The notes under the pieces: generated by a model
The model's input: only the letters and a program-made list of their open reading frames with translations
Told to the model about the DNA's origin: nothing
Database searches by the model: none
Shown: positions 171-30,039 of the stretch, piece by piece
Layout of the letters: the number at the start of each line of letters is the position of its first letter
How positions within the stretch are numbered: position 1 is the first letter of the stretch
Virus record (IMG/VR): IMGVR_UViG_3300045988_118684
Span: 1-40,712 of that record
Strand: one strand, 5' to 3'
DNA from: a virus
Length of the DNA stretch: 40,712 nucleotides
Program-made: the position numbers and the translations under genes

Positions 171-238
171 TATAGATCCATGATTGTATGGTAGATGCAA
201 TAGCACCTGTCTGTATTGTATCACAAGGAGGTGTAAAT

Positions 239-1366
239 GTGGCCAGTATTAGTAAACGTGGCAAAAAATGGCAATATCGTGTCTCTTACAAGGATAATGA
301 TGGAACACGCAAGTATGTCAACAAGGGTGGCTTCCCCTCAAAAAAAGCTGCTGATATAGCGGCAATCGAAGTCGAACGTCAGCATAATCGCGGTGCAAAT
401 TTGGATCTTAACAAGATAACGTTAATCGACTACTGGGACAAATGGATTGAGCTGTACAAATCTGGTAAGCATTCTCGTATCACCGAAGCCCGGTATAAAA
501 CAATTCGTAAACAGTTATTAGCCTATTGGGGTGAAAGCCGTGAACTAAAATCAATTTCAAAATCAGACTGGCAGGCATTTATCAATGAGTTTGGCAAAAA
601 AAGGGCTAAGGATACAGTCAGCAAATTGAATGGCTATGTTCGCTCAATGGCTGATTCTGCCGTCGATGACCAAATAATATATACTAACTTCACTCATAAC
701 GTTGTCCTCACTGGTAATGAAGGCCAAGCAGGAATCATCAAATATTTGCAAGTAAAGGATTTGCGTAAGCTCGTCAATTACTGCCTAGAATTTGCAGACT
801 ACGAGCATATTGCTTACTACATCATCGCAACCGGGGCACTGACCGGAGCTAGGTATTCTGAAGTTCTTGGGCTCACGTGGGATCATGTTGATCTTAAAAA
901 GCGCGTTGTGCACATTACCAGAACGTGGGATCACAGATATGGCAGCGGCTTTGCTGCTACTAAGAACAAATCAAGTGTACGTGACATCGACATAACGAGA
1001 GAACTTGCAGACTTGCTTTTACGTCTCAAGAAAGAACAGCAAGAGGTCTACCTTGCTCAGGGATATCGTGATAGCAAACAACTATTATTTCGCAGCATAC
1101 GGCATAACATGCTATCGAGCACGGCAATTAATAAGGATCTAAGGACGATCGAGAAGACTCTCGACATTTCCCCCGCGATTACTTTCCATGGGCTTAGACA
1201 CACTCACGTTTCCTATTTGATTGCCAATCACGTTGACATTAACTATATTTCAAAAAGACTTGGGCATGCCAATACAATGATCACTCAAAAAGTCTACGCT
1301 CATCTTCTTGAAGATCAAAGAAAAGAGCAGGTATCCCAGACGCTACAAGCACTTTCGAGACTTTAG
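239..1366 (+). CDS. int: Tyrosine integrase with N-terminal arm-binding domain
   Basis: Motifs TGARYSEVLGL, TKNKSSVRDI, HGLRHTH, LGHAN and QKVYAHLL are present. The N-terminus (V)ASISKRGKKWQYRVSY is typical. A GTG at 239 lies 7 nt after AAGGAGG (225..231); the tracked ATG at 188 has no SD. Confidence 0.9.
   Translation: MASISKRGKKWQYRVSYKDNDGTRKYVNKGGFPSKKAADIAAIEVERQHNRGANLDLNKITLIDYWDKWIELYKSGKHSRITEARYKTIRKQLLAYWGESRELKSISKSDWQAFINEFGKKRAKDTVSKLNGYVRSMADSAVDDQIIYTNFTHNVVLTGNEGQAGIIKYLQVKDLRKLVNYCLEFADYEHIAYYIIATGALTGARYSEVLGLTWDHVDLKKRVVHITRTWDHRYGSGFAATKNKSSVRDIDITRELADLLLRLKKEQQEVYLAQGYRDSKQLLFRSIRHNMLSSTAINKDLRTIEKTLDISPAITFHGLRHTHVSYLIANHVDINYISKRLGHANTMITQKVYAHLLEDQRKEQVSQTLQALSRL
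294..321 (-). promoter_or_regulatory. Candidate antisense promoter inside the int 5' region
   Basis: The - strand reads TTGACA (316..321), a 16-nt spacer, then CATTAT (294..299). It points toward the int start and the terminator at 131..170. Confidence 0.3.
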
Positions 1367-1367
1367 C

Positions 1368-1557
1368 TTGTGCACATTTTGTGCACCGGAGGAAAAAAAC
1401 AACAGAAAATAAAAGGAAACAAAAATCCCGGAATGCCTTTATACCAGCATTCCGGGAAGCTATAGAAAGCATCTAGAAGCATAAAAACGGAGAGTAAGTG
1501 CGAAAACAAACGTATATATAATAGTAGAAAACCACATTTTGTGCATATTTTGTGCAC
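1368..1557. repeat. Cluster of TTGTGCA(C/T) / ATTTTGTGCA(C/T) repeats; candidate Int arm-type sites in attP
   Basis: TTGTGCAC is at 1368..1375. ATTTTGTGCAC is at 1376..1386 and 1547..1557, and ATTTTGTGCAT at 1536..1546 (tandem). The cluster lies between the convergent int and lysis genes. Confidence 0.4.
1395..1456 (-). terminator. Rho-independent terminator, - strand
   Basis: A 10-bp stem CCCGGAATGC/GCATTCCGGG (1427..1436 / 1447..1456) is followed on the - strand by ATTTTTGTTTCCTTTTATTTT. Confidence 0.6.
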
Positions 1558-1603
1558 AAAAATAAGCCCTCCACCCGCGTTAGCGAGCAGAGGACTTTTT
1601 GTT
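1557..1603. terminator. Probable bidirectional terminator after the int and lysis-side transcripts
   Basis: An imperfect stem AAGCCCTC...GAGGACTT (1564..1571 / 1590..1597) is flanked by an A-run upstream and a T-run downstream on both strands. Confidence 0.4.
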
Positions 1604-1613
1604 ACCTGATATA

Positions 1614-1838
1614 TCAATATTCTTCTCCGTCCCAGCCACGTAGACCAGGAGGACCGCAAACGGCTGATTTATGCTCCAAGGCCATTGTCACAGACTGAAC
1701 GGAGGCAACAGCATCTATAAGTTCATCAGTTGAATGCTTGTCTGAAGCGGAATCCAGCAACTCTGAAACGGCTCTCATTAAGTCACGTCTCACATAACTT
1801 TGCTCAATAACTCGTGCTTGACCAATTTTTTTAGACAT
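1614..1838 (-). CDS. Hypothetical 74-aa protein at the attP-proximal end, downstream of endolysin (moron position)
   Basis: ATG at 1838 is preceded by AAGGTGAG. The tracked first codon is a GTG inside the SD. No family was recognised. Confidence 0.5.
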   Translation of the reverse strand: MSKKIGQARVIEQSYVRRDLMRAVSELLDSASDKHSTDELIDAVASVQSVTMALEHKSAVCGPPGLRGWDGEEY

Positions 1839-1882
1839 ATGCACTCACCTTATTTAAATTTTTTGGTTTCAACGGCAACCCA

Positions 1883-3067
1883 TTACTTGATGTACAGGCT
1901 TTCACCTGGGTAAATCAAACTGTAGATTGACTTGCCATTGTTGGCTGCCAGTGTGTACATGCTGATGCCATACTTGCTGGCAATACTCCAGAAGCTGTCA
2001 CCAGAGCGGACTGTATAATACGTGTGGCTTACCAGCGAAGTATATCCAGACGAACGCGAGCCATAGCTCTCCCCACCATTCACGCCCAAGGCAACATAAT
2101 GATACCGACCGGAGTAGCTGAGGTACCGTGCCCAGACGTATGAACCGCGAATATACACATGATCATACACAAGGCTCTCACCCGGCACATAGCTGCCAAC
2201 TGCCGTGTATCCTGTACCAGCACCAGTGCGGATGTTAACAGTCGTGGAAGGCTTGAAAACACCAGTTTGCGCATAGTCGGAATCACTGGCTGCATTTGAT
2301 TTCGCTGGTTGGCTTGGCACCGGTGTTACAGGTGCTGACGGGGTTTCTGGTTGGCTCGAGTAGCCATTATCAGTGATACCAAGCAGATCAATGTTACCAT
2401 CGAGGCCTTGCGACAGCCCAAATGCGCTCGTGTACTGCCAAATAGCTACCCCATCCATACTCGGAAAATAACCGTAGTCTGGTTTGGTAGTTGGTAGATA
2501 ATCACGGTAAGCAGCAATCCAAAGGCTGTTAGGAAATTCTTTCAGAATACGCTGATAATCGACGTGTGCCAATGTATATGGCTTGTAACTGTAATACATG
2601 GGCGTGTAGCCTTCGGAATGAATGCGCCGCATACCAGCTAAAATTGCATCCGTATTAGCTGCCATATTCCCAGAAGCACCATCTTCGTAATCCAAAGCAA
2701 CGATGCTTCCCTTTGGCGTCTGTGCTTTGATACGAGGCATATAACGGTCAAGTGCTTCTAATCCCAACTGGCTACTTGCACCAACACCATACCAGATGTA
2801 GCTATGCACACGTTTTCCTGCCGCCTTGGCACTAGCAATTTGGCTATCATACGTCCACTGATCGATGTACGTACCACCGTAAGTTCCGCCAATCTGAGCT
2901 ATGACGAACTTGTCTTGATCTGTTCCATATCGTCCACTTGCTCCCTGATACTTCGCCCAATCCGGGCCCTGATCACCCTTGGCCGCATTGACCTGCGATG
3001 GCAGGGCAAAAGAAATAGCCGCTAAGAAGGCGACTACCAAGGTAATTAGTTTAGTTTTTAGTTTCAT
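1883..3067 (-). CDS. Endolysin: signal peptide + GH25 muramidase + SH3b-like + LysM
   Basis: ATG at 3067 follows TAAGGAGGAAACC. The N-terminus is MKLKTKLITLVVAFLAAISFALPSQVNA|AKG. GH25-like DWAKYQG..FVIAQIGG..AGKRVHSYIWY is present. The C-terminus carries LysM YTVRSGDSFWSIASKYGISMYTLAANNG. Confidence 0.9.
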   Translation of the reverse strand: MKLKTKLITLVVAFLAAISFALPSQVNAAKGDQGPDWAKYQGASGRYGTDQDKFVIAQIGGTYGGTYIDQWTYDSQIASAKAAGKRVHSYIWYGVGASSQLGLEALDRYMPRIKAQTPKGSIVALDYEDGASGNMAANTDAILAGMRRIHSEGYTPMYYSYKPYTLAHVDYQRILKEFPNSLWIAAYRDYLPTTKPDYGYFPSMDGVAIWQYTSAFGLSQGLDGNIDLLGITDNGYSSQPETPSAPVTPVPSQPAKSNAASDSDYAQTGVFKPSTTVNIRTGAGTGYTAVGSYVPGESLVYDHVYIRGSYVWARYLSYSGRYHYVALGVNGGESYGSRSSGYTSLVSHTYYTVRSGDSFWSIASKYGISMYTLAANNGKSIYSLIYPGESLYIK

Positions 3068-3077
3068 GGTTTCCTCC

Positions 3078-3500
3078 TTATTGCTGTGGAGCAACAGATG
3101 CCGGAGCTGACTCCGCCGGTGCTGCAGAAGACGTCTCTGGAACCACTTCACTAGCAGCAGTTACCTGGTCAGCCTCTTTATCCGCTTGCAGTGCCTTAAT
3201 CTGGTCCTCTAAGGACTTGATCTTAGCTGCCTTGGTGGTAATGAGTGCCGGGTAAGCTAACGCCTGTTGGCTGTCGCTGACGCCCTCTGTGGTTGGGTCA
3301 ACGGCAACCCCCACAATGGTCAACAGTGCAAATACTGCATTGATCACTGCGGTGAGCTCCTTGCCCAAGTTGGCAAAATCCCAGTTGTAACCGAAAACCG
3401 CTGCCACTGTTTGTACAACCAACAAAGCTGCCGGCACTAATGCCAGCCAGAATTTGACGCTTAATACTCGTACTTTCCAATTAATCTTCATACTGAACAT
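3078..3500 (-). CDS. Holin (phiLC3-type)
   Basis: The N-terminus MKINWKVRVLSVKFWLALVPAALLVVQ is present, with two TM segments, a DPTTEGVSDS motif and a charged tail. It lies directly upstream of the endolysin. Confidence 0.8.
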   Translation of the reverse strand: MFSMKINWKVRVLSVKFWLALVPAALLVVQTVAAVFGYNWDFANLGKELTAVINAVFALLTIVGVAVDPTTEGVSDSQQALAYPALITTKAAKIKSLEDQIKALQADKEADQVTAASEVVPETSSAAPAESAPASVAPQQ

Positions 3501-16870: not shown

Positions 16871-17015
16871 CTGGTGTCACCCCCGCAAGTTTCTGTAAAT
16901 CTGCCTTTAATGCATTGCTTGGGTAACTGATTCCCTTTGAATCGAGGTATGACTTAAGCTGTGCAACGGTGGAGTTGCTGTCTACCCCCGCTTCAACGGG
17001 GGATACTATTCCCCC
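16863..17015 (-). CDS. Probable -1 frame C-terminal extension of the major capsid protein (HeH-like motif)
   Basis: The -1 frame is open across 17039..16863 with no start codon until near its end. It reads GIVSPVEAGVDSNSTVAQLKSYLDSKGISYPSNALKADLQKLAGVTPDE. A G5 run at 17015..17011 is followed by a hairpin 6 nt downstream. Confidence 0.5.
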   Translation of the reverse strand, partial: GGIVSPVEAGVDSNSTVAQLKSYLDSKGISYPSNALKADLQKLAGVTPDE

Positions 17016-17031
17016 GTTGAAGCGGGGGTAG
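16982..17031. repeat. Perfect 22-6-22 palindrome spanning the capsid gene stop
   Basis: + strand reads CTACCCCCGCTTCAACGGGGGA TACTAT TCCCCCGTTGAAGCGGGGGTAG. Each arm can also fold alone as CCCCCG-N6-CGGGGG. Confidence 0.95.
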
Positions 17032-18175
17032 CACTTGGATCAGTAATATTAAGTGCATAGACAAGTGCAGCATTACTATCTGCTGGTGCACCATAGAAGA
17101 ACTGCTTAGCAGTGAACAGGATTGCATCCTGAATAGCCAATGTTTGATTAAAGTCAGAGATGTTTAAGCCACCAGCCATGTATGCGTCATAACGGCCTTT
17201 AACAAAAGCAATAGCCTTCCCATCTGGAACGTACTGAGATTCAATGATCTGAATGCCATATGGTAGCGCATATACCCACTGACCATTAACGTTTTGCATG
17301 GTCATTGCACGTTCAAAATCAAGCGAAGCACCCGGCTGTACAACCAAAATGGTGTTTCCACGTGCAACTACAGGCTTGCCGTTTGCTTTCTTGGACAGAG
17401 CCTTAATGATGGCCATCAGTTCAAACTTTGCCGTGTCAGCATCTTTGAGAGTTACAGTGCCTGCATCAGCCTTAACAGGATAGGTTGTCACGCCATCGGC
17501 TGTGGCACCTTTTGACGGATCGCGATCAAGCCCAATTGGCTTACTATTACCATCGCCATCGACAAAAGCAGATTCAGATGCGGCCGCAAACGCTTCGGTG
17601 ATTTGGGTAGTAACGTATGTGCGTACCCATGCCGGACCGAATGAATCAAGATCATTAGGCAGCACTACGAATGCCGTCAGTTTACTCATTTCTGCATCAA
17701 CAGACGTGAACGTAGCATCAAGCTGCCCTTGAATATCGCCAAAAATCTTGCCCCATACAGCGGCACCTGTAGCATCAGACTTCCAGATTTTCAAGCGCAC
17801 ACCGTTGTTCTGCAAACCAATCGCTTGCAGCAGAGGGTGATTAGAAGTCAGATCTTCGAAAATCTTGTCCACAGTGGTTTGTGGAATAAGCTGGTCGTTT
17901 TTGAACCCAGTATCAGTCGAGATATCATTGAAGAATTTAACTTCATCTTGTGTCATCTTCACATCACCGGTGTTGGCTGCAATGATGTTATCAATTTCCT
18001 CTTGGGTTTTATTCTTAAGTTTCTCTTGGAAGCTATTGAGATCAGTGGAAAGCGCGTCCATCATTTCACCAAAGGCCTTGCCTTGGGCCTCAGCGTCACC
18101 GCCACTTTTGACAATGTCTGCGAATGCCTTTTGTTTTTCCGCAAAGGTATCTAAATTCTTAAAGCTCATAGTCAT
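17006..18175 (-). CDS. Major capsid protein (HK97 fold family)
   Basis: 389 aa. It follows the ClpP-type prohead protease and portal. Confidence 0.9.
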   Translation of the reverse strand: MTMSFKNLDTFAEKQKAFADIVKSGGDAEAQGKAFGEMMDALSTDLNSFQEKLKNKTQEEIDNIIAANTGDVKMTQDEVKFFNDISTDTGFKNDQLIPQTTVDKIFEDLTSNHPLLQAIGLQNNGVRLKIWKSDATGAAVWGKIFGDIQGQLDATFTSVDAEMSKLTAFVVLPNDLDSFGPAWVRTYVTTQITEAFAAASESAFVDGDGNSKPIGLDRDPSKGATADGVTTYPVKADAGTVTLKDADTAKFELMAIIKALSKKANGKPVVARGNTILVVQPGASLDFERAMTMQNVNGQWVYALPYGIQIIESQYVPDGKAIAFVKGRYDAYMAGGLNISDFNQTLAIQDAILFTAKQFFYGAPADSNAALVYALNITDPSATPASTGE

Positions 18176-24997: not shown

Positions 24998-25061
24998 TGT
25001 GGCATGCGGGAATCGAACCCGCCTGACTATCTCAGCCAGTCCATTTGCCACGCCTTGCCAC
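24998..25061 (-). other. tRNA-like fragment (T-arm + acceptor 3' strand); not a canonical tRNA
   Basis: The - strand reads GCGGG TTCGATT CCCGC ATGCCAC A (25022..24998). The possible 5' partner GTGGCAA occurs twice (25061, 25051). No D-arm or canonical anticodon loop could be folded by eye. Confidence 0.3.
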
Positions 25062-26954: not shown

Positions 26955-27156
26955 CGTCAGTCACCACCAGAAAATCAAAGTCATGTGTAAGAGCTGGTAA
27001 TGCTTTTTCAATTGTCTTCTGTCCCTCCACGTCTAAATCATAGGTAACTAAATTTGCACCGTCCGTTACTTGTTGAATTCCCATAAATAGGGTATCAAGG
27101 TCAACATCATTGCTACATTGAAGCACAACTGTTTGATGCGTCATTTCACTTTTCAT
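26944..27156 (-). CDS. Hypothetical acidic protein (70 aa)
   Basis: An ORF in the operon context. Confidence 0.5.
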   Translation of the reverse strand: MKSEMTHQTVVLQCSNDVDLDTLFMGIQQVTDGANLVTYDLDVEGQKTIEKALPALTHDFDFLVVTDDER

Positions 27157-27700
27157 CGTCAGTCACCTCCACAGGCTTGAGTATTTTTACCCAGTTTGGG
27201 GCAGAATCGTACTCGTCTTTAGTGACCGTGTAGCCGTGTTTAACAGCATAATCTTGACTTGGGGCAGTGTTGATATACCAGATTCCATCTTCCATATAGG
27301 AATATCCTTGGTGCTCCCCAAAGCCTTCCATTTGGAGCAAATACCGTTTTTCCTTTGCCACGGTGTAGCCATTGACGAGGGCACGCATTAGGCGGAGTTC
27401 TTCATAAGACGTGCCGTTAGCTCCAGGATCAGGATGAGCGTTCATGCTGATATAATTTGCCGGATAGCTGTCCGTCTTAGCCCTGTCTAGTATTTTGGCT
27501 TCCTCCTTGCTGACCACCTCTGGATTCGGCTTCTCGATCAGCTCGACCACGTGACCACCATACACATGGGCAAGTATGTCAGCGTCATGTTGGTCGAAAA
27601 AGTCGCCGTCATCGCGGCTCCAATAATGGCAACCTTTGGCCTCAATGCAAAGCCACTTTCCTTCATCGTTCTTTACCGCGTACAGTTTTTCTTCGCTCAT
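27146..27700 (-). CDS. DUF1642-like early protein (184 aa)
   Basis: Contains LRLMRALVNGYTVAKEKRY, similar to the paralogue at 26601..26954. Confidence 0.5.
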   Translation of the reverse strand: MSEEKLYAVKNDEGKWLCIEAKGCHYWSRDDGDFFDQHDADILAHVYGGHVVELIEKPNPEVVSKEEAKILDRAKTDSYPANYISMNAHPDPGANGTSYEELRLMRALVNGYTVAKEKRYLLQMEGFGEHQGYSYMEDGIWYINTAPSQDYAVKHGYTVTKDEYDSAPNWVKILKPVEVTDDEK

Positions 27701-27807
27701 TTTTCGTCCTCTACTTTCGTAAGCTTGTACAAAGTTCCTTTGATGTCCACGTAAACTGGCTCACCGGTCGCTTGGCTGATGTAAACATCGTCTACTTCTG
27801 ACTCCAT
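27697..27807 (-). CDS. Small protein (36 aa), absent from the ORF track
   Basis: CGGAGG lies 7 nt before the ATG at 27807. The sequence is MESEVDDVYISQATGEPVYVDIKGTLYKLTKVEDEK, and its stop overlaps the next start (ATGA). Confidence 0.35.
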   Translation of the reverse strand: MESEVDDVYISQATGEPVYVDIKGTLYKLTKVEDEK

Positions 27808-27830: not shown

Positions 27831-28409
27831 TCAGCGTTGTCTGTATATAGCACGTTTCTGCTCTGGCATACCGGATCTTTTCGCCGGTGGTAGAACTCCT
27901 TTGAGACGCAATCTACGAATCTTGGCTTGAATAGTGCCAACGTTTCGATTTAATATTTTCGTCAATTTGTCGTAATTTGCTGTCACGCCAAAACTGTCAA
28001 ATTCGATATTGTTGATAAGGAGTAATAAGTCTGATTCATTCCACTTTTTTACCAGAATAGGGCCCTGCTTTCGGCAAATAGATTCAATGCCGTATTTGGT
28101 TCTGCCCATCATTTGAGCTATTTCTTCGTGAGTGTGTGTTGATCGAAGTTTCATGATCATTTGCTTTTCTCTTTTGCTATAGAAGCTTCCATACTTTTCT
28201 ATCTGGTTTTCTTTGCAAAACTTCGGCAATTCGCCACGATGTCTGAGCTTATTTGCAGCGTGTTTAACGCCCAGCACGGTTCTCCCAAACATGTCGGCGA
28301 GTTCTTCATAGTTGAGGATGGCATTTGTATCAGCTGCCATAATCACTTCATCTTTAAAGCGATCAAGTTCTTCAGGCGTCCAATTTTTGTTTACTCTGTC
28401 TTGTTTCAT
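27831..28409 (-). CDS. Protein with three Myb/GcrA-like HTH repeats
   Basis: The three repeats are NWTPEELDRF..LADMFGRTVLGVKHAANKLRHRG, YSKREKQMI..IAQMMGRTKYGIESICRKQG, and KWNESDLLLL..LTKILNRNVGTIQAKIRRLRLKG. Confidence 0.6.
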   Translation of the reverse strand: MKQDRVNKNWTPEELDRFKDEVIMAADTNAILNYEELADMFGRTVLGVKHAANKLRHRGELPKFCKENQIEKYGSFYSKREKQMIMKLRSTHTHEEIAQMMGRTKYGIESICRKQGPILVKKWNESDLLLLINNIEFDSFGVTANYDKLTKILNRNVGTIQAKIRRLRLKGVLPPAKRSGMPEQKRAIYRQR

Positions 28410-28418
28410 ATCATTACC

Positions 28419-29342
28419 TCACAAAGCGGCCATTAATTGTCCGATCTTTGCATCTGCCGAAGTCTCTGTATCTTTCAACAAATGGATATATACCTTCTGG
28501 GTTGTCAGCGAGCTAGAATGGCCTAACCGTTTTGCGACGGCCTGTAAGTTGATGCCTTTGCCAATCAGCAACGATGCATGTGTATGCCGCAATCCATGCG
28601 CCGATATAACGGGAACGCCAGCATTCTCACAATGACGTTTCAAGATGTCATTAATGGTCTCGTTGTATATACGCTTCCCGTTTGGTACAAAAATTGGCTT
28701 ATCTTTCGGCAAATTTTGGATCAGCATTGCAAACTTCGCTGCAGTTTTGTAGTCAAGCGCAATCGTTCGCACAGATGATTTATTTTTTGTAGGGGCAAAC
28801 TTACCTGTAGCGCTTTTGTAATCCCAAGTTTTGTTAATCCTTAGTGTCAAAGAGTCCAAATCGAAGTCTGCCGGTGTTAGCCCGAGAGCTTCTGCAAATC
28901 TCAGTCCCGTCTTGGCAAGCAGTAAAATCATGTAATCGTAATCTAGCTCTTTTCCCAAATTGAGATCTTGGAGAAGTTTTTCTAATTCTTCTGGCTGCAA
29001 AAACTTAATCTTGTGTTCTCTATGCCTAGTGCCGCCAATAACTGCACGCAAGGTTGGATCTCGCTTGATCAGTCCTTCGTCTAGAATGTCCTGAATCACG
29101 CATTTGAGCTGGTGATGAAAATCCATGCATGTTTGATGCTCATGTGTTTCTGCATACTGGCTTAGAAGCTGCTGATAGCTTCTACGGGTAAGCTGTGTCA
29201 CCTTTAGTTGTGGCGCTAACATTTTGAGCATTCGCTCGGTGTTCTCCCACTTGCGATAGGTCACTGGGGTCACATAATTTTGCTTGTATGTCTCAATCCA
29301 CTTTTTGAAATAGGTCTGAAATAACTGTTCATTTCTCTTCAA
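28419..29342 (-). CDS. Second tyrosine recombinase, lacking the arm-binding domain
   Basis: Motifs GLRFAEALGL, TKNKSSVRTI, HGLRHTH, LGHSS and QKVYIHLL are present. It is a paralogue of Int but begins at the core-binding domain. The TTG start lies 6 nt after AAAGGAGG and overlaps the upstream stop by 14 nt. Confidence 0.85.
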   Translation of the reverse strand: MKRNEQLFQTYFKKWIETYKQNYVTPVTYRKWENTERMLKMLAPQLKVTQLTRRSYQQLLSQYAETHEHQTCMDFHHQLKCVIQDILDEGLIKRDPTLRAVIGGTRHREHKIKFLQPEELEKLLQDLNLGKELDYDYMILLLAKTGLRFAEALGLTPADFDLDSLTLRINKTWDYKSATGKFAPTKNKSSVRTIALDYKTAAKFAMLIQNLPKDKPIFVPNGKRIYNETINDILKRHCENAGVPVISAHGLRHTHASLLIGKGINLQAVAKRLGHSSSLTTQKVYIHLLKDTETSADAKIGQLMAAL

Positions 29343-30039
29343 GTTTGTCCTCCTTTCCCGCTGCTAATTTCTGAATGGCTTCGTTGTATCTTTCTGGTAT
29401 CTCTGTTGATTCAATGTGATTTTGTTCAGGCTCTAGCCATTGTCGAATATCAAATTCTTGTTCAACGTCTTTGCTGTGCGGCATCACATTTACTGTGCTG
29501 AAATGCAAATAGTCGTCTTCATCGTTTTGAATGAAATATACTTGTCTAGCAGCACGTGTCAGACTGTCACCATGAACAATTGTTGCGTTCATGCCGCGAA
29601 TGGCACAGTTGAATATCAAAAACGGCAACGTGCTATCGCCAAGCTCTTCCAAATGGTAAAAATACATGCTTGGCCGGTAGTCCCACGGCTTGTGCTTCAA
29701 ACGGTCTTGTTGCCATCGTTGAATCATCATTGATCCAGTACCAGCAGCAACCTCGTAATACTCGCTACTGTCATGCGAGCCTACCAGCATGTTCACGAGC
29801 TTGCTGATGCTTTCAGGGGTGAAATCTTGTTTCTTGTCTTTTCGGTCAGCTTGAACGCTCATGAAATATTCTGAGAACCAGTCATGCGATACGTCTGTAT
29901 TGACATCTAGGAATTGCTTAAAAAGCTCGTTCCGCTTTTGCTGATCCATGACAATGCCCATCAATGCTGCTGGCGCCTGCTGTGCCTCACGAACGCCTAA
30001 CAGTTTGTGAACGACATCTGCTGTGAATTTGGTCGTCAT
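29329..30039 (-). CDS. N6-adenine MTase-like protein without a recognisable catalytic NPPF/DPPY motif
   Basis: QDFTPESIS, YYEVAAGTGSMMIQ and GMNATIVHGDSL occur in HsdM-like order. The protein ends about 65 aa later with no (N/D)PP(F/Y/W). Confidence 0.6.
   Translation of the reverse strand: MTTKFTADVVHKLLGVREAQQAPAALMGIVMDQQKRNELFKQFLDVNTDVSHDWFSEYFMSVQADRKDKKQDFTPESISKLVNMLVGSHDSSEYYEVAAGTGSMMIQRWQQDRLKHKPWDYRPSMYFYHLEELGDSTLPFLIFNCAIRGMNATIVHGDSLTRAARQVYFIQNDEDDYLHFSTVNVMPHSKDVEQEFDIRQWLEPEQNHIESTEIPERYNEAIQKLAAGKEDKLEEK

Follow-up and report, generated by a model that had tools for sequence, protein, structure and literature searches.

A conserved early-operon module of temperate Firmicutes phages combines an hsdS-invertase-like recombinase with a truncated HsdM-type protein and a multi-HTH protein

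The window analysed here is a whole stretch of 40,712 nucleotides of DNA of a Lacticaseibacillus phage (IMG/VR record IMGVR_UViG_3300045988_118684). Its early operon, on the minus strand, holds three coupled genes, hereafter MTL (236 aa), REC (307 aa), and HTH (192 aa). These genes, two downstream neighbours, and the integrase of the phage are as follows:

29329..30039, minus strand: MTL, 236 aa, truncated fragment of an HsdM-type (gamma-class N6) methyltransferase
28419..29342, minus strand: REC, 307 aa, TTG start, arm-less tyrosine recombinase with core-binding and catalytic domains
27831..28409, minus strand: HTH, 192 aa, predicted array of three Myb/SANT-like helix-turn-helix units
27697..27807, minus strand: small 36-aa ORF, at the downstream edge of the REC+HTH insertion
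27146..27700, minus strand: DUF1642 gene (Pfam DUF1642, E 3.5e-7), part of the context and possibly linked to MTL
188..1366, plus strand: Int, canonical arm-bearing integrase, 392 aa, outside the module and listed for contrast

The coordinates and spacing of the three genes were confirmed. REC overlaps the stop region of MTL by 14 nt, its TTG start is preceded by a strong Shine-Dalgarno sequence (AAGGAGG), as had been described, and the ATG of HTH lies 9 nt beyond the REC stop. Synteny in related (pro)phages, on which the preliminary description of this DNA had made its reading depend, was recovered many times, and the trio is a real syntenic unit. Among the (pro)phage loci that were retrieved, about 100 have it, from Lacticaseibacillus, Listeria (B025 gp42-44), and Enterococcus faecalis. 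All phage-borne REC homologues with at least 41% identity in IMG/VR are in an operon with MTL (about 65 loci, and more in a further set), and this link spans at least three host genera (Lacticaseibacillus, Listeria, and Enterococcus) and several unassigned lineages. The genes occur in three orders: MTL-REC-HTH, HTH-MTL-REC (locus L038), and REC-MTL-HTH (L072). Their coding regions overlap or almost touch, and L072 encodes a 604-aa protein made of five HTH units fused to REC. The module lies at different genome positions in B025, where it is about 1 kb past a cro-like gene, and in the window, where DnaD/DnaC-like loaders and a DUF1064 resolvase-like gene are found just upstream. The upstream neighbours are a C5-methylase, directly adjacent, in E. 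faecalis prophages, and PcfK (annotated as AcrIIA9 family) and PcfJ in Listeria phage B054. Downstream, the DUF1642 gene is the regular neighbour in Lacticaseibacillus and in B025 (gp45). Some prophage copies carry a frameshifted REC (L036/L107 and L160). Overall, the trio is a conserved and dispensable unit within the early lytic operon of temperate Firmicutes phages.

REC belongs to the tyrosine recombinase superfamily, with matches to PF00589 (E 8e-26) and Phage_int_SAM_5. The complete residue set that had been read from the window was borne out: R148, K186, H249, R252, H275, and Y285 are invariant in 29 of 29 aligned relatives, and lineages diverged to 40-50% identity retain every catalytic residue. 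The alignment of REC with Int (30% identity) begins only at Int residue 82, Int being about 80 residues longer at the N-terminus, in agreement with the earlier remark that REC lacks the arm-binding region. The suggestion that the two are clear paralogues was overstated, since this identity makes REC a superfamily relative only. REC also departs from lambda-type integrases by its location inside the early operon and by its lack of flanking non-coding DNA. The tree places Int among the arm-bearing Ints of other phages and not in the REC/invertase family; the split between arm-bearing Ints and the joint group of phage RECs and invertases of restriction-modification (R-M) systems recurs in 156 of 200 bootstraps. 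The closest cellular relatives of REC (50-57% identity) are the invertases found at hsdS loci of phase-variable type I R-M systems: among the best 80 genomic homologues, 60 adjoin hsdS (with or without hsdM) and none adjoins MTL. The likeness to the hsdM-recombinase core of such loci, noted from the window alone, thus goes beyond analogy. A grouping of phage RECs with R-M invertases from the genus of their own hosts appears in 1 of 200 bootstraps, which leads us to reject a recent capture of REC from a host R-M locus; they make up an old, long-branched grade outside the tight R-M clade. By sequence, REC belongs to the EfiA-like (clade 4) invertases of hsdS invertons and is predicted to be a catalytically intact 'simple' tyrosine recombinase of this family.

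MTL matches the Pfam profile N6_Mtase only over positions 11-121 of 311 (E 3.8e-10) and phrog_1071 over its full length (E 1e-105). Its motifs X, I, II, and III (QDFTP, G100xG102, E131E132, and G157D158) are invariant in 40 homologues, as is N172. When compared with the gamma-class N6 methyltransferases (HsdM type, PF02384), MTL retains the SAM-binding motifs; motif IV is degenerate, and motifs V-VIII, the target-recognition domain, and the C-terminal half are missing. An hhalign alignment with HsdM residues 173-304 (probability 83%) places the 'ANPPY' of HsdM opposite 'VMPHS' in MTL, which ends about 45 residues further on. No member of the MTL family has a PP[YF] motif, so the missing catalytic motif reported for the protein of the window is a feature of the whole family. 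The AF2 model (pLDDT 88.8) contains strands 1-5 only, and its best PDB fold matches are PacII M and HsdM (E about 3e-3, TM 0.4). Fold searches gave little past 'truncated class-I methyltransferase' for MTL and 'tandem HTH' for HTH, and the defence models of PADLOC-DB gave weak matches only (MTase_II, E 5e-5, for MTL) and none for REC. The family measures 200-245 aa everywhere, with equal lengths in the presence and absence of REC, and we rejected the idea of a gene interrupted by the cassette. The candidate MTL remnant gp63 of B054 was also rejected, as it shows no similarity. These features describe MTL as an HsdM-type SAM-binding half-domain that is predicted to be incapable of adenine methylation.

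The AF2 model of HTH has three three-helix units (pLDDT 74.5), and the protein matches phrog_323 (E 8e-30). Its original description as three Myb/GcrA-like repeats stands in part: the model has the three units and relatives pass the Myb and GcrA cut-offs (B025 gp44, Myb 25.9 against 24.4; L038, Myb 30.6 and GcrA 27.9), but all Pfam matches of the protein of the window are under threshold (Myb, 13.5 bits). Some HTH partners score on HTH_17 (38.5 bits) and on Phage_Cox (26.5 bits, for a cut-off of 27.5). The family comprises 154 clusters, all of them multi-HTH arrays. Allelic variation falls in the C-terminal units, the N-terminal one being conserved; at least two alleles (51% identity) are found behind 98% identical RECs. 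We thus regard HTH as a probable multi-Myb DNA binder with variable distal repeats.

REC and HTH together are a clean 1.5-kb indel behind MTL, between flanks that are otherwise 93-99% identical. Among the 70 MTL loci with enough downstream sequence, 34 have REC and 36 lack it. The specific coupling of MTL to REC that had been supposed was not upheld, because about half of the closest MTL-bearing phage loci are without REC+HTH. Homology with the REC-less phages stops at about 29349 and restarts at about 27711, and in these phages the homologue of the 36-aa ORF directly follows MTL. The insertion junctions lie at GGAGG ribosome-binding sites, GGGAAAGGAGG/ACAAAC... and ...TAACGGAGG/CCGACCAATG (slashes mark the junctions). 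Beyond this site the two junctions have nothing in common, neither a core nor an att-like repeat, and the cassette is free of non-coding DNA.

Searches for inverted and direct repeats, between 25 and 32 kb and over the whole window, returned chance-level matches only, apart from a terminator-like hairpin at 16982..17031, and no lox-like dyads were found in or beside the module in three genera. Within 6 kb on either side, k-mers specific to REC-bearing loci or to one HTH allele occur only inside those genes. DNA inversion or resolution within the phage, two of the roles first put forward, are therefore implicated by no inverted, direct, or lox-like repeat. The two substrates named at the time fared no better. 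ARAGORN finds no tRNA-like gene at the supposed tRNA-like fragment (24998..25061) or anywhere else in the window, and Rfam gave no match; the DNA around the palindrome at 16982..17031 is unmatched in any phage record, including that of R9.1, despite its nearly identical REC. Sequences typical of hsdS are equally lacking: the window has 0 matches to the inverted repeat TGGGARCWGYGTAAGYT with up to three mismatches and 1 match to CAGYGTAAGTT with up to one mismatch (1.4 expected), and comparisons of hsdS regions with B025 and the window (blastn-short) gave chance matches only, with no hsdS-like DNA. Both hsdS and hsdM are absent from all phage loci of the module, and no EfiA-type hsdS inverton of Lacticaseibacillus was found among the plasmid matches.

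We place the target of REC in trans, on the host, because the phage has no detectable site pair or lox-like site, the cassette is an accessory indel, and relatives have counter-defence neighbours. The reading that we tentatively favour, while giving it well under an even chance, is that the module is an accessory device for counter-defence and works in trans on the DNA of the host, with the hsdS repeats of type I R-M systems as the likeliest substrate. REC would perform a site-specific DNA rearrangement, HTH would be its targeting or architectural (Xis/Cox-like) partner, and MTL, without catalysis of its own, would be a partner subunit that binds SAM or mimics HsdM. On the host chromosome, the most plausible target would be short inverted repeats of the hsdS type within a phase-variable type I R-M locus, and the module would, during lytic growth, subvert or re-set this defence of the host. 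In E. faecalis, experiments mapped hsdS inversions to inverted repeats such as TGGGAACAGTGTAAG, at loci encoding an EfiA-type invertase (PMC7672463), and we found this motif also in L005-L007. The choice of host hsdS as a possible target is drawn from homology and context, and we make it with low confidence. Phage RECs stand apart from the R-M invertases of their own host genera, and a shared site specificity is therefore not assured. Furthermore, hsdS flipping would not obviously come in time to protect the infecting genome. The distant resemblance between MTL and HsdM (the hhalign probability given above), the frequency of MTL without REC, the frameshifted prophage RECs, and the lack of a Lacticaseibacillus inverton among the plasmid matches also count against this reading.

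The alternative that survives best, although rather unlikely in our view, is that REC acts on the DNA of the phage itself, either at a single Cre/lox- or Xer/dif-like site, cyclising or resolving replicating genomes, or by inverting a segment, with HTH as an architectural protein. A simple recombinase expressed together with replication and recombination genes (the DnaD/DnaC-like loaders and DUF1064) would suit this role, a single site would evade repeat searches, and the HTH-REC fusion and the Xis/Cox-like scores would suit a reaction that depends on an accessory factor. On the other hand, no repeat pair other than the hairpin at 16982..17031 exceeds chance, there is no lox-like dyad in or beside the module in the three genera, and the sequence linked to REC or to HTH alleles is confined to the genes themselves over 6 kb on each side. 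The near-identical phages devoid of REC+HTH are also unexpected for a function in the replication cycle.

MTL could instead be the functional core, a decoy, HsdM-like or SAM-binding, by which type I restriction (or BREX) would be relieved, with REC+HTH as an unrelated passenger in a hot spot of accessory genes. MTL alone is indeed widespread (at least 582 IMG/VR loci), its motifs for SAM binding do not vary, and it adjoins orphan methylases in E. faecalis and Streptococcus-like prophages. It is common without REC, including in virulent Streptococcus thermophilus phages, and its role may therefore be independent. Yet a mere hot spot would not keep the link between REC and MTL across three gene orders and at least three host genera, and we hold this explanation to be improbable.

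The clean presence/absence pattern, exactly at the 3' end of MTL, might also be that of a selfish mini-element, either REC+HTH or the whole trio, spreading among phage genomes by site-specific insertion next to or with MTL. That phage REC is always beside MTL, and that the module changes position between B025 and the window, would fit such an element. However, the junctions share GGAGG and no core or att-like repeat, MTL lies between REC and HTH in L072, the cassette has no non-coding DNA, and the overlapping coding regions suggest co-expression rather than cargo; this makes the selfish element very unlikely. Slightly less probable still is a second specificity of integration or excision, for an alternative attachment site or for the mobilisation of satellites or islands. 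REC would be suited to this as an intact tyrosine recombinase whose partner may be Xis/Cox-like, but it lacks an arm-binding domain, no attP-like non-coding region accompanies it, its gene is in the early lytic operon at a great distance from the lysogeny switch, and the window and B025 contain no hsdS-like DNA. Moreover, B025 and B054 each carry a separate canonical Int with a mapped attP beside it, which agrees with the initial view that the trio is separate from the integration module. The idea of REC as the sole integrase of B054 was rejected on the same grounds, since gp38 with attP is present. Finally, a decaying, functionless remnant of a captured type I R-M fragment is hardly credible: MTL and REC both have homologues in R-M inverton loci and a few prophage RECs are frameshifted, but lineages at 40-50% identity keep all catalytic residues and SAM-binding motifs, and the phage RECs are no recent captures from the R-M loci of hosts.

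Returning to an action in trans on host DNA, a stronger version of this proposal is that phages use their own specificity-flipping recombinase, a dead HsdM mimic, and an HTH array lytically, rearranging or disabling a phase-variable type I R-M system (or a similar methylase shufflon) of the host. As a corollary, the invertases of R-M invertons would have been domesticated from the phage module, because phage RECs are a basal grade in the tree. We consider this bolder version distinctly unlikely. Phase-variable type I R-M is both a widespread bet-hedging defence and an epigenetic switch. That phages of at least three genera carry a member of the invertase family tightly tied to an HsdM-derived fragment offers a testable handle on how phages confront these systems and bears on the origin of inverton invertases. 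If the action on host R-M were true, a virus would be manipulating a defence switch of its host by site-specific recombination. Independently of function, the current labels mislead: the 'DNA methyltransferase' (phrog_1071) should be unable to methylate adenine by the canonical route and the 'site-specific integrase' is not the integrase of the phage, a point of importance wherever lifestyle or methylation potential is scored in prophages.

Parts of the module are already annotated in GenBank and PHROGs (phrog_1071, phrog_1, and phrog_323). Listeria B025 gp42-gp43-gp44 is the same module (MTL 53% and REC 44-45% identical, a D5-like/Myb HTH, then DUF1642), as are WBM89936-89938 of Lacticaseibacillus phage R9.1 (REC 98% identical) and, without MTL, gp64-gp65 of Listeria B054. 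Their annotations go no further than 'DNA methyltransferase / site-specific integrase / transcriptional regulator' or hypothetical protein. The full-text literature that we searched contains no description of the module, nor of a function or unit for the genes of B025, B054, and R9.1, and within this literature the first impression of an undescribed system seems correct for the module taken as a whole.

Several known systems share some of its traits. Ocr, Ral, and the T3 SAM lyase are early, accessory anti-restriction factors tied to type I R-M or to SAM. The module is likewise early, accessory, and conceptually linked to R-M or SAM, but it has no relationship with them in sequence or fold, and we know of no truncated HsdM-like protein with a demonstrated anti-restriction action of this kind. 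The lambda Int/Xis and P2 Int/Cox pairs also associate a recombinase with a small HTH DNA-binding partner, whereas REC has no arm-binding domain, its partner is an array of three to five HTH units, and the module, which lacks an attP, is away from the lysogeny junction. Cre/loxP of phage P1 and Xer/dif are, like REC, arm-less tyrosine recombinases encoded by phages besides or instead of an integrase; unlike them, REC has no lox- or dif-like dyad nearby, travels with two partner proteins, and is dispensable among close relatives. The closest parallel is with the hsdS invertases, such as EfiA of E. faecalis (clade 4, PMC7672463), which are 50-60% identical to REC, have the same arm-less build of about 305 aa and the same catalytic residues, and are also encoded beside a gene of the N6_Mtase family. 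The phage loci differ from these invertons in that they are devoid of hsdS, inverted repeats, and hsdR, the adjacent methylase is an apparently dead fragment, and the Myb-HTH protein of the phage stands in the position of hsdS.

Our ORF analysis of the window, the genome of a temperate Lacticaseibacillus siphophage of the A2/Lrm1/BH1 type with most of its genes on the minus strand, gave the same coordinates as the preliminary description for three closely packed ORFs. These encode a truncated HsdM-type N6-methylase fragment (MTL), an arm-less tyrosine recombinase (REC), and a triple Myb-like HTH protein (HTH). They are listed here with the two genes that follow:

29329..30039, minus strand, MTL, 236 aa
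28419..29342, minus strand, REC, 307 aa, TTG start
27831..28409, minus strand, HTH, 192 aa
27697..27807, minus strand, small unannotated ORF, 36 aa (MESEVDDVYISQATGEPVYVDIKGTLYKLTKVEDEK), with its own GGAGG site
27146-27700, minus strand, DUF1642 gene, downstream of the module

As previously described, a strong ribosome-binding site (AAGGAGG) precedes the TTG of REC, and the first 14 nt of REC are shared with the 3' end of MTL; 9 nt separate the REC stop from HTH. The trio is placed after genes for DnaD/DnaC-like loaders and a resolvase-like DUF1064 protein, ahead of the DUF1642 gene. In consensus scans, sites resembling promoters or terminators were not in excess, and the minus strand had no convincing terminator from ~37 kb to 26 kb, which places the trio within a long early operon. 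Downstream of the module, Lacticaseibacillus and Listeria alike have a DUF1642 gene (gp45 of Listeria phage B025), despite the different genome positions of the module, and DUF1642 is possibly linked to MTL as a pair.

The synteny that the preliminary description had proposed to check by tblastn is present in Lacticaseibacillus, Listeria, and Enterococcus faecalis loci, which share all three genes. Lacticaseibacillus phage R9.1 carries them with a REC 98% identical to ours, and in B025 they correspond to gp42 (MTL, 53% identity), gp43 (REC, 44-45%), and gp44 (Myb-like HTH). Among the 79 IMG/VR loci fetched with REC and annotated, the order is MTL, REC, HTH in ~28 Lacticaseibacillus and ~31 Listeria loci, HTH, MTL, REC in L038 and L040, and REC, MTL, HTH in L072 and L073; HTH is missing after MTL and REC in L045, L054, and L074. 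Two of the loci (L037, L039) are of R-M type, and ordinary integrases make up the weakest matches. Fetching with MTL gave a further set, which added E. faecalis prophages with the full trio and one locus (L148) with only MTL and REC. REC and HTH without MTL were found only in Listeria phage B054. The REC of L072 and L073 is part of a fusion:

L072/L073, 559-2373, 604-aa ORF, five HTH_28/HTH_17-type units N-terminal to REC

Downstream of the fusion lie an MTL with Ser at the N172 position, a 250-aa Myb/HTH_17 protein and, further on, what by eye are a putative dUTPase (144 aa) and a putative primase-helicase (804 aa). Coding regions overlap or are at most about 10 nt apart in all lineages. Because the linkage outlasts permutation of gene order and a domain fusion exists, the sequences argue for functional coupling of the trio rather than chance adjacency.

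The domains recognised in REC are PF00589 (E 8e-26) and a core-binding domain of SAM-like type. The complete residue set of tyrosine recombinases reported earlier was recovered, since R148, K186, H249, R252, H275, and Y285 are invariant across 29 aligned relatives. In prophages L036/L107 (IMGVR_UViG_2898225294_000002) and L160, a frameshift or stop has apparently broken REC into two ORFs, which shows its decay in some lysogens. The alignment with the canonical arm-bearing integrase of the phage (Int, 188..1366, plus strand) begins only at Int residue 82, with 30% identity. REC is thus arm-less, as proposed, but it is a superfamily relative of Int and not the clear paralogue previously suggested.

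The top non-phage matches of REC in the phage database are bacterial contigs with the arrangement hsdS-REC-hsdS'(inverted)-hsdM (L005, L006). Homologues of ~305 aa and ~55% identity number in the thousands, and two proteins picked from them (L. plantarum and Bifidobacterium) are also in hsdS/hsdM-type loci. The 80 best matches among species-representative genomes come from many phyla and have 50-57% identity; 60 of them have an hsdS neighbour, with or without hsdM, and none adjoins MTL. Judged by sequence, the REC family is that of the 'epigenetic inverton' invertases. The E. faecalis enzyme of this family was named EfiA (clade 4), and hsdS inversions in its locus type were mapped at inverted repeats such as TGGGAACAGTGTAAG (PMC7672463). 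We detected this motif independently in L005-L007. L005 (OR846613.1, 'Enterococcus phage Efs 1-1-1') and L006 (OR846726.1, 'Listeria phage LM 4-11-1'), both GenBank records marked UNVERIFIED_ORG, contain a full type I R-M locus of the phase-variable kind (hsdM, hsdS, invertase, and an hsdS' in inverse orientation), to which L005 adds a membrane-protein gene, apparently chromosomal. Both appear to be bacterial contigs under a mistaken phage label.

In a bootstrapped NJ tree of the family (200 replicates), phage RECs and R-M invertases split from arm-bearing Ints in 156 replicates, and a tight clade of R-M enzymes (mean identity 64%) appears in 114. Phage RECs, never monophyletic (0/200), make a long-branched basal grade and are therefore old phage lineages. 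Their recent capture is ruled out, since they group with R-M enzymes of the host genus in a single replicate of the 200.

The model of HTH has three three-helix units (pLDDT 74.5). Its Pfam scores are sub-threshold, relatives exceed the thresholds of Myb, GcrA, and HTH_17, and one almost reaches that of Phage_Cox. An exhaustive HMMER search gave only 154 clusters, all multi-HTH arrays. At least two HTH alleles (51% identity) occur behind 97-99% identical RECs and part ways beyond the initial ~40-55 codons, a pattern consistent with one end being conserved for interaction and the other varying in DNA recognition. The fusion in L072, the profile scores of Xis/Cox type, and the allelic repeats at the distal end suggest that HTH would target or shape the recombination reaction of REC.

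Repeat pairs in the window, inverted or direct, are at chance level except for a perfect, GC-rich 22-6-22 hairpin (16982..17031), which overlaps the 3' end of the minus-strand gene 17006..18175 and resembles a terminator or an element that stabilises RNA. This palindrome and a tRNA-like fragment had been offered as REC substrates. Neither proposal found support: megablast of the 136 bases around the hairpin matched no phage record, R9.1 included, and the window has no tRNA or Rfam element. We found no lox-like dyads in the module in three genera, no hsdS inverted-repeat motifs or hsdS-like DNA in the window, and, within 6 kb on either side, no k-mers outside these genes specific to REC-positive loci or to one HTH allele. 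The site of REC is possibly a single distant phage site or a host site. Of these, we consider action at a single site within the phage genome unlikely; the target would rather lie beyond it, most plausibly in host hsdS-type repeats.

The Pfam N6_Mtase match of MTL is confined to profile positions 11-121 of 311, and phrog_1071 ('DNA methyltransferase', 223 positions) is matched end to end. The SAM-binding motifs QDFTP, GxG, EE, and GD are invariant in 40 homologues, none of which has a (N/D/S)PP(Y/F) motif, in agreement with the reported lack of the catalytic motif. With hhalign, MTL 55-187 aligns on HsdM 173-304 (probability 83%), where 'VMPHS' faces the 'ANPPY' of HsdM. The AF2 model (pLDDT 88.8) is limited to strands 1-5 and only weakly matches the HsdM and PacII-M structures (E about 3e-3, TM about 0.4). 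The partial match, missing motif, and half fold indicate a SAM-binding half-methylase, which should not methylate adenine. Orphan methylase genes also occur near MTL in relatives:

L149, 3207-3947, C5-cytosine methylase gene directly upstream of MTL, E. faecalis prophages
L137, 2924-3406, small class-I methyltransferase gene two genes upstream of MTL, Streptococcus-like prophage lineage

MTL may be part of a methylation or anti-restriction gene neighbourhood. In B054, the surroundings are of anti-defence type: genes for PcfK (annotated as AcrIIA9 family) and PcfJ (1475-3255 of the fetched locus) come directly before gp63-REC-HTH. The surroundings in these relatives are typical of counter-defence; PADLOC gave no defence-system match for the trio itself. 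MTL is found without REC in Streptococcus pyogenes prophages, S. thermophilus phages (including CHPC isolates), and Oenococcus phages. That it is an independent decoy, with REC and HTH as passengers, seems to us less likely still than a single phage site.

The flanks of REC and HTH are 93-99% identical to REC-less Lacticaseibacillus phages, with homology stopping at ~29349 and restarting at ~27711. The insertion point is exactly between the MTL stop and the 36-aa ORF; this ORF is the cassette boundary, and its homologue directly follows MTL in REC-less phages (BH1 gp46 position). The two junctions have only a GGAGG ribosome-binding site in common, and the cassette contains no non-coding DNA. 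Where the sequence downstream of MTL is long enough to tell (70 loci), REC is present in 34 and absent in 36. That REC and HTH form a selfish cassette is improbable in our estimate. A second integration specificity is slightly more so: a canonical Int with mapped attP exists both in B025, where the trio lies ~1 kb past the cro-like gene, and in B054, and the extra recombinase is thus not their integrase. The comparisons show a module that is conserved, transcribed as a unit with its operon, and dispensable. We give hardly any credence to its being a decaying remnant.

In the module, a simple recombinase that is intact and belongs to the hsdS-invertase family is co-expressed with a dead SAM-binding fragment of HsdM type and a DNA-binding multi-HTH protein that varies. 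We tentatively propose that HTH would guide REC, with MTL as a non-catalytic partner, to host hsdS-type repeats, and that this could undermine type I R-M systems of the phase-variable kind. Taken whole, this mechanism is possible but short of probable, and the remaining probability goes to roles unlisted here or without recombination. The host-target hypothesis is open to direct test, which makes the module worthy of note. Full-text literature searching returned no paper treating the trio as a unit or giving its function, and its components are individually annotated in public records. The family of hsdS invertases and the type of locus in which they lie are known; a phage-borne variant of them appears to be new.
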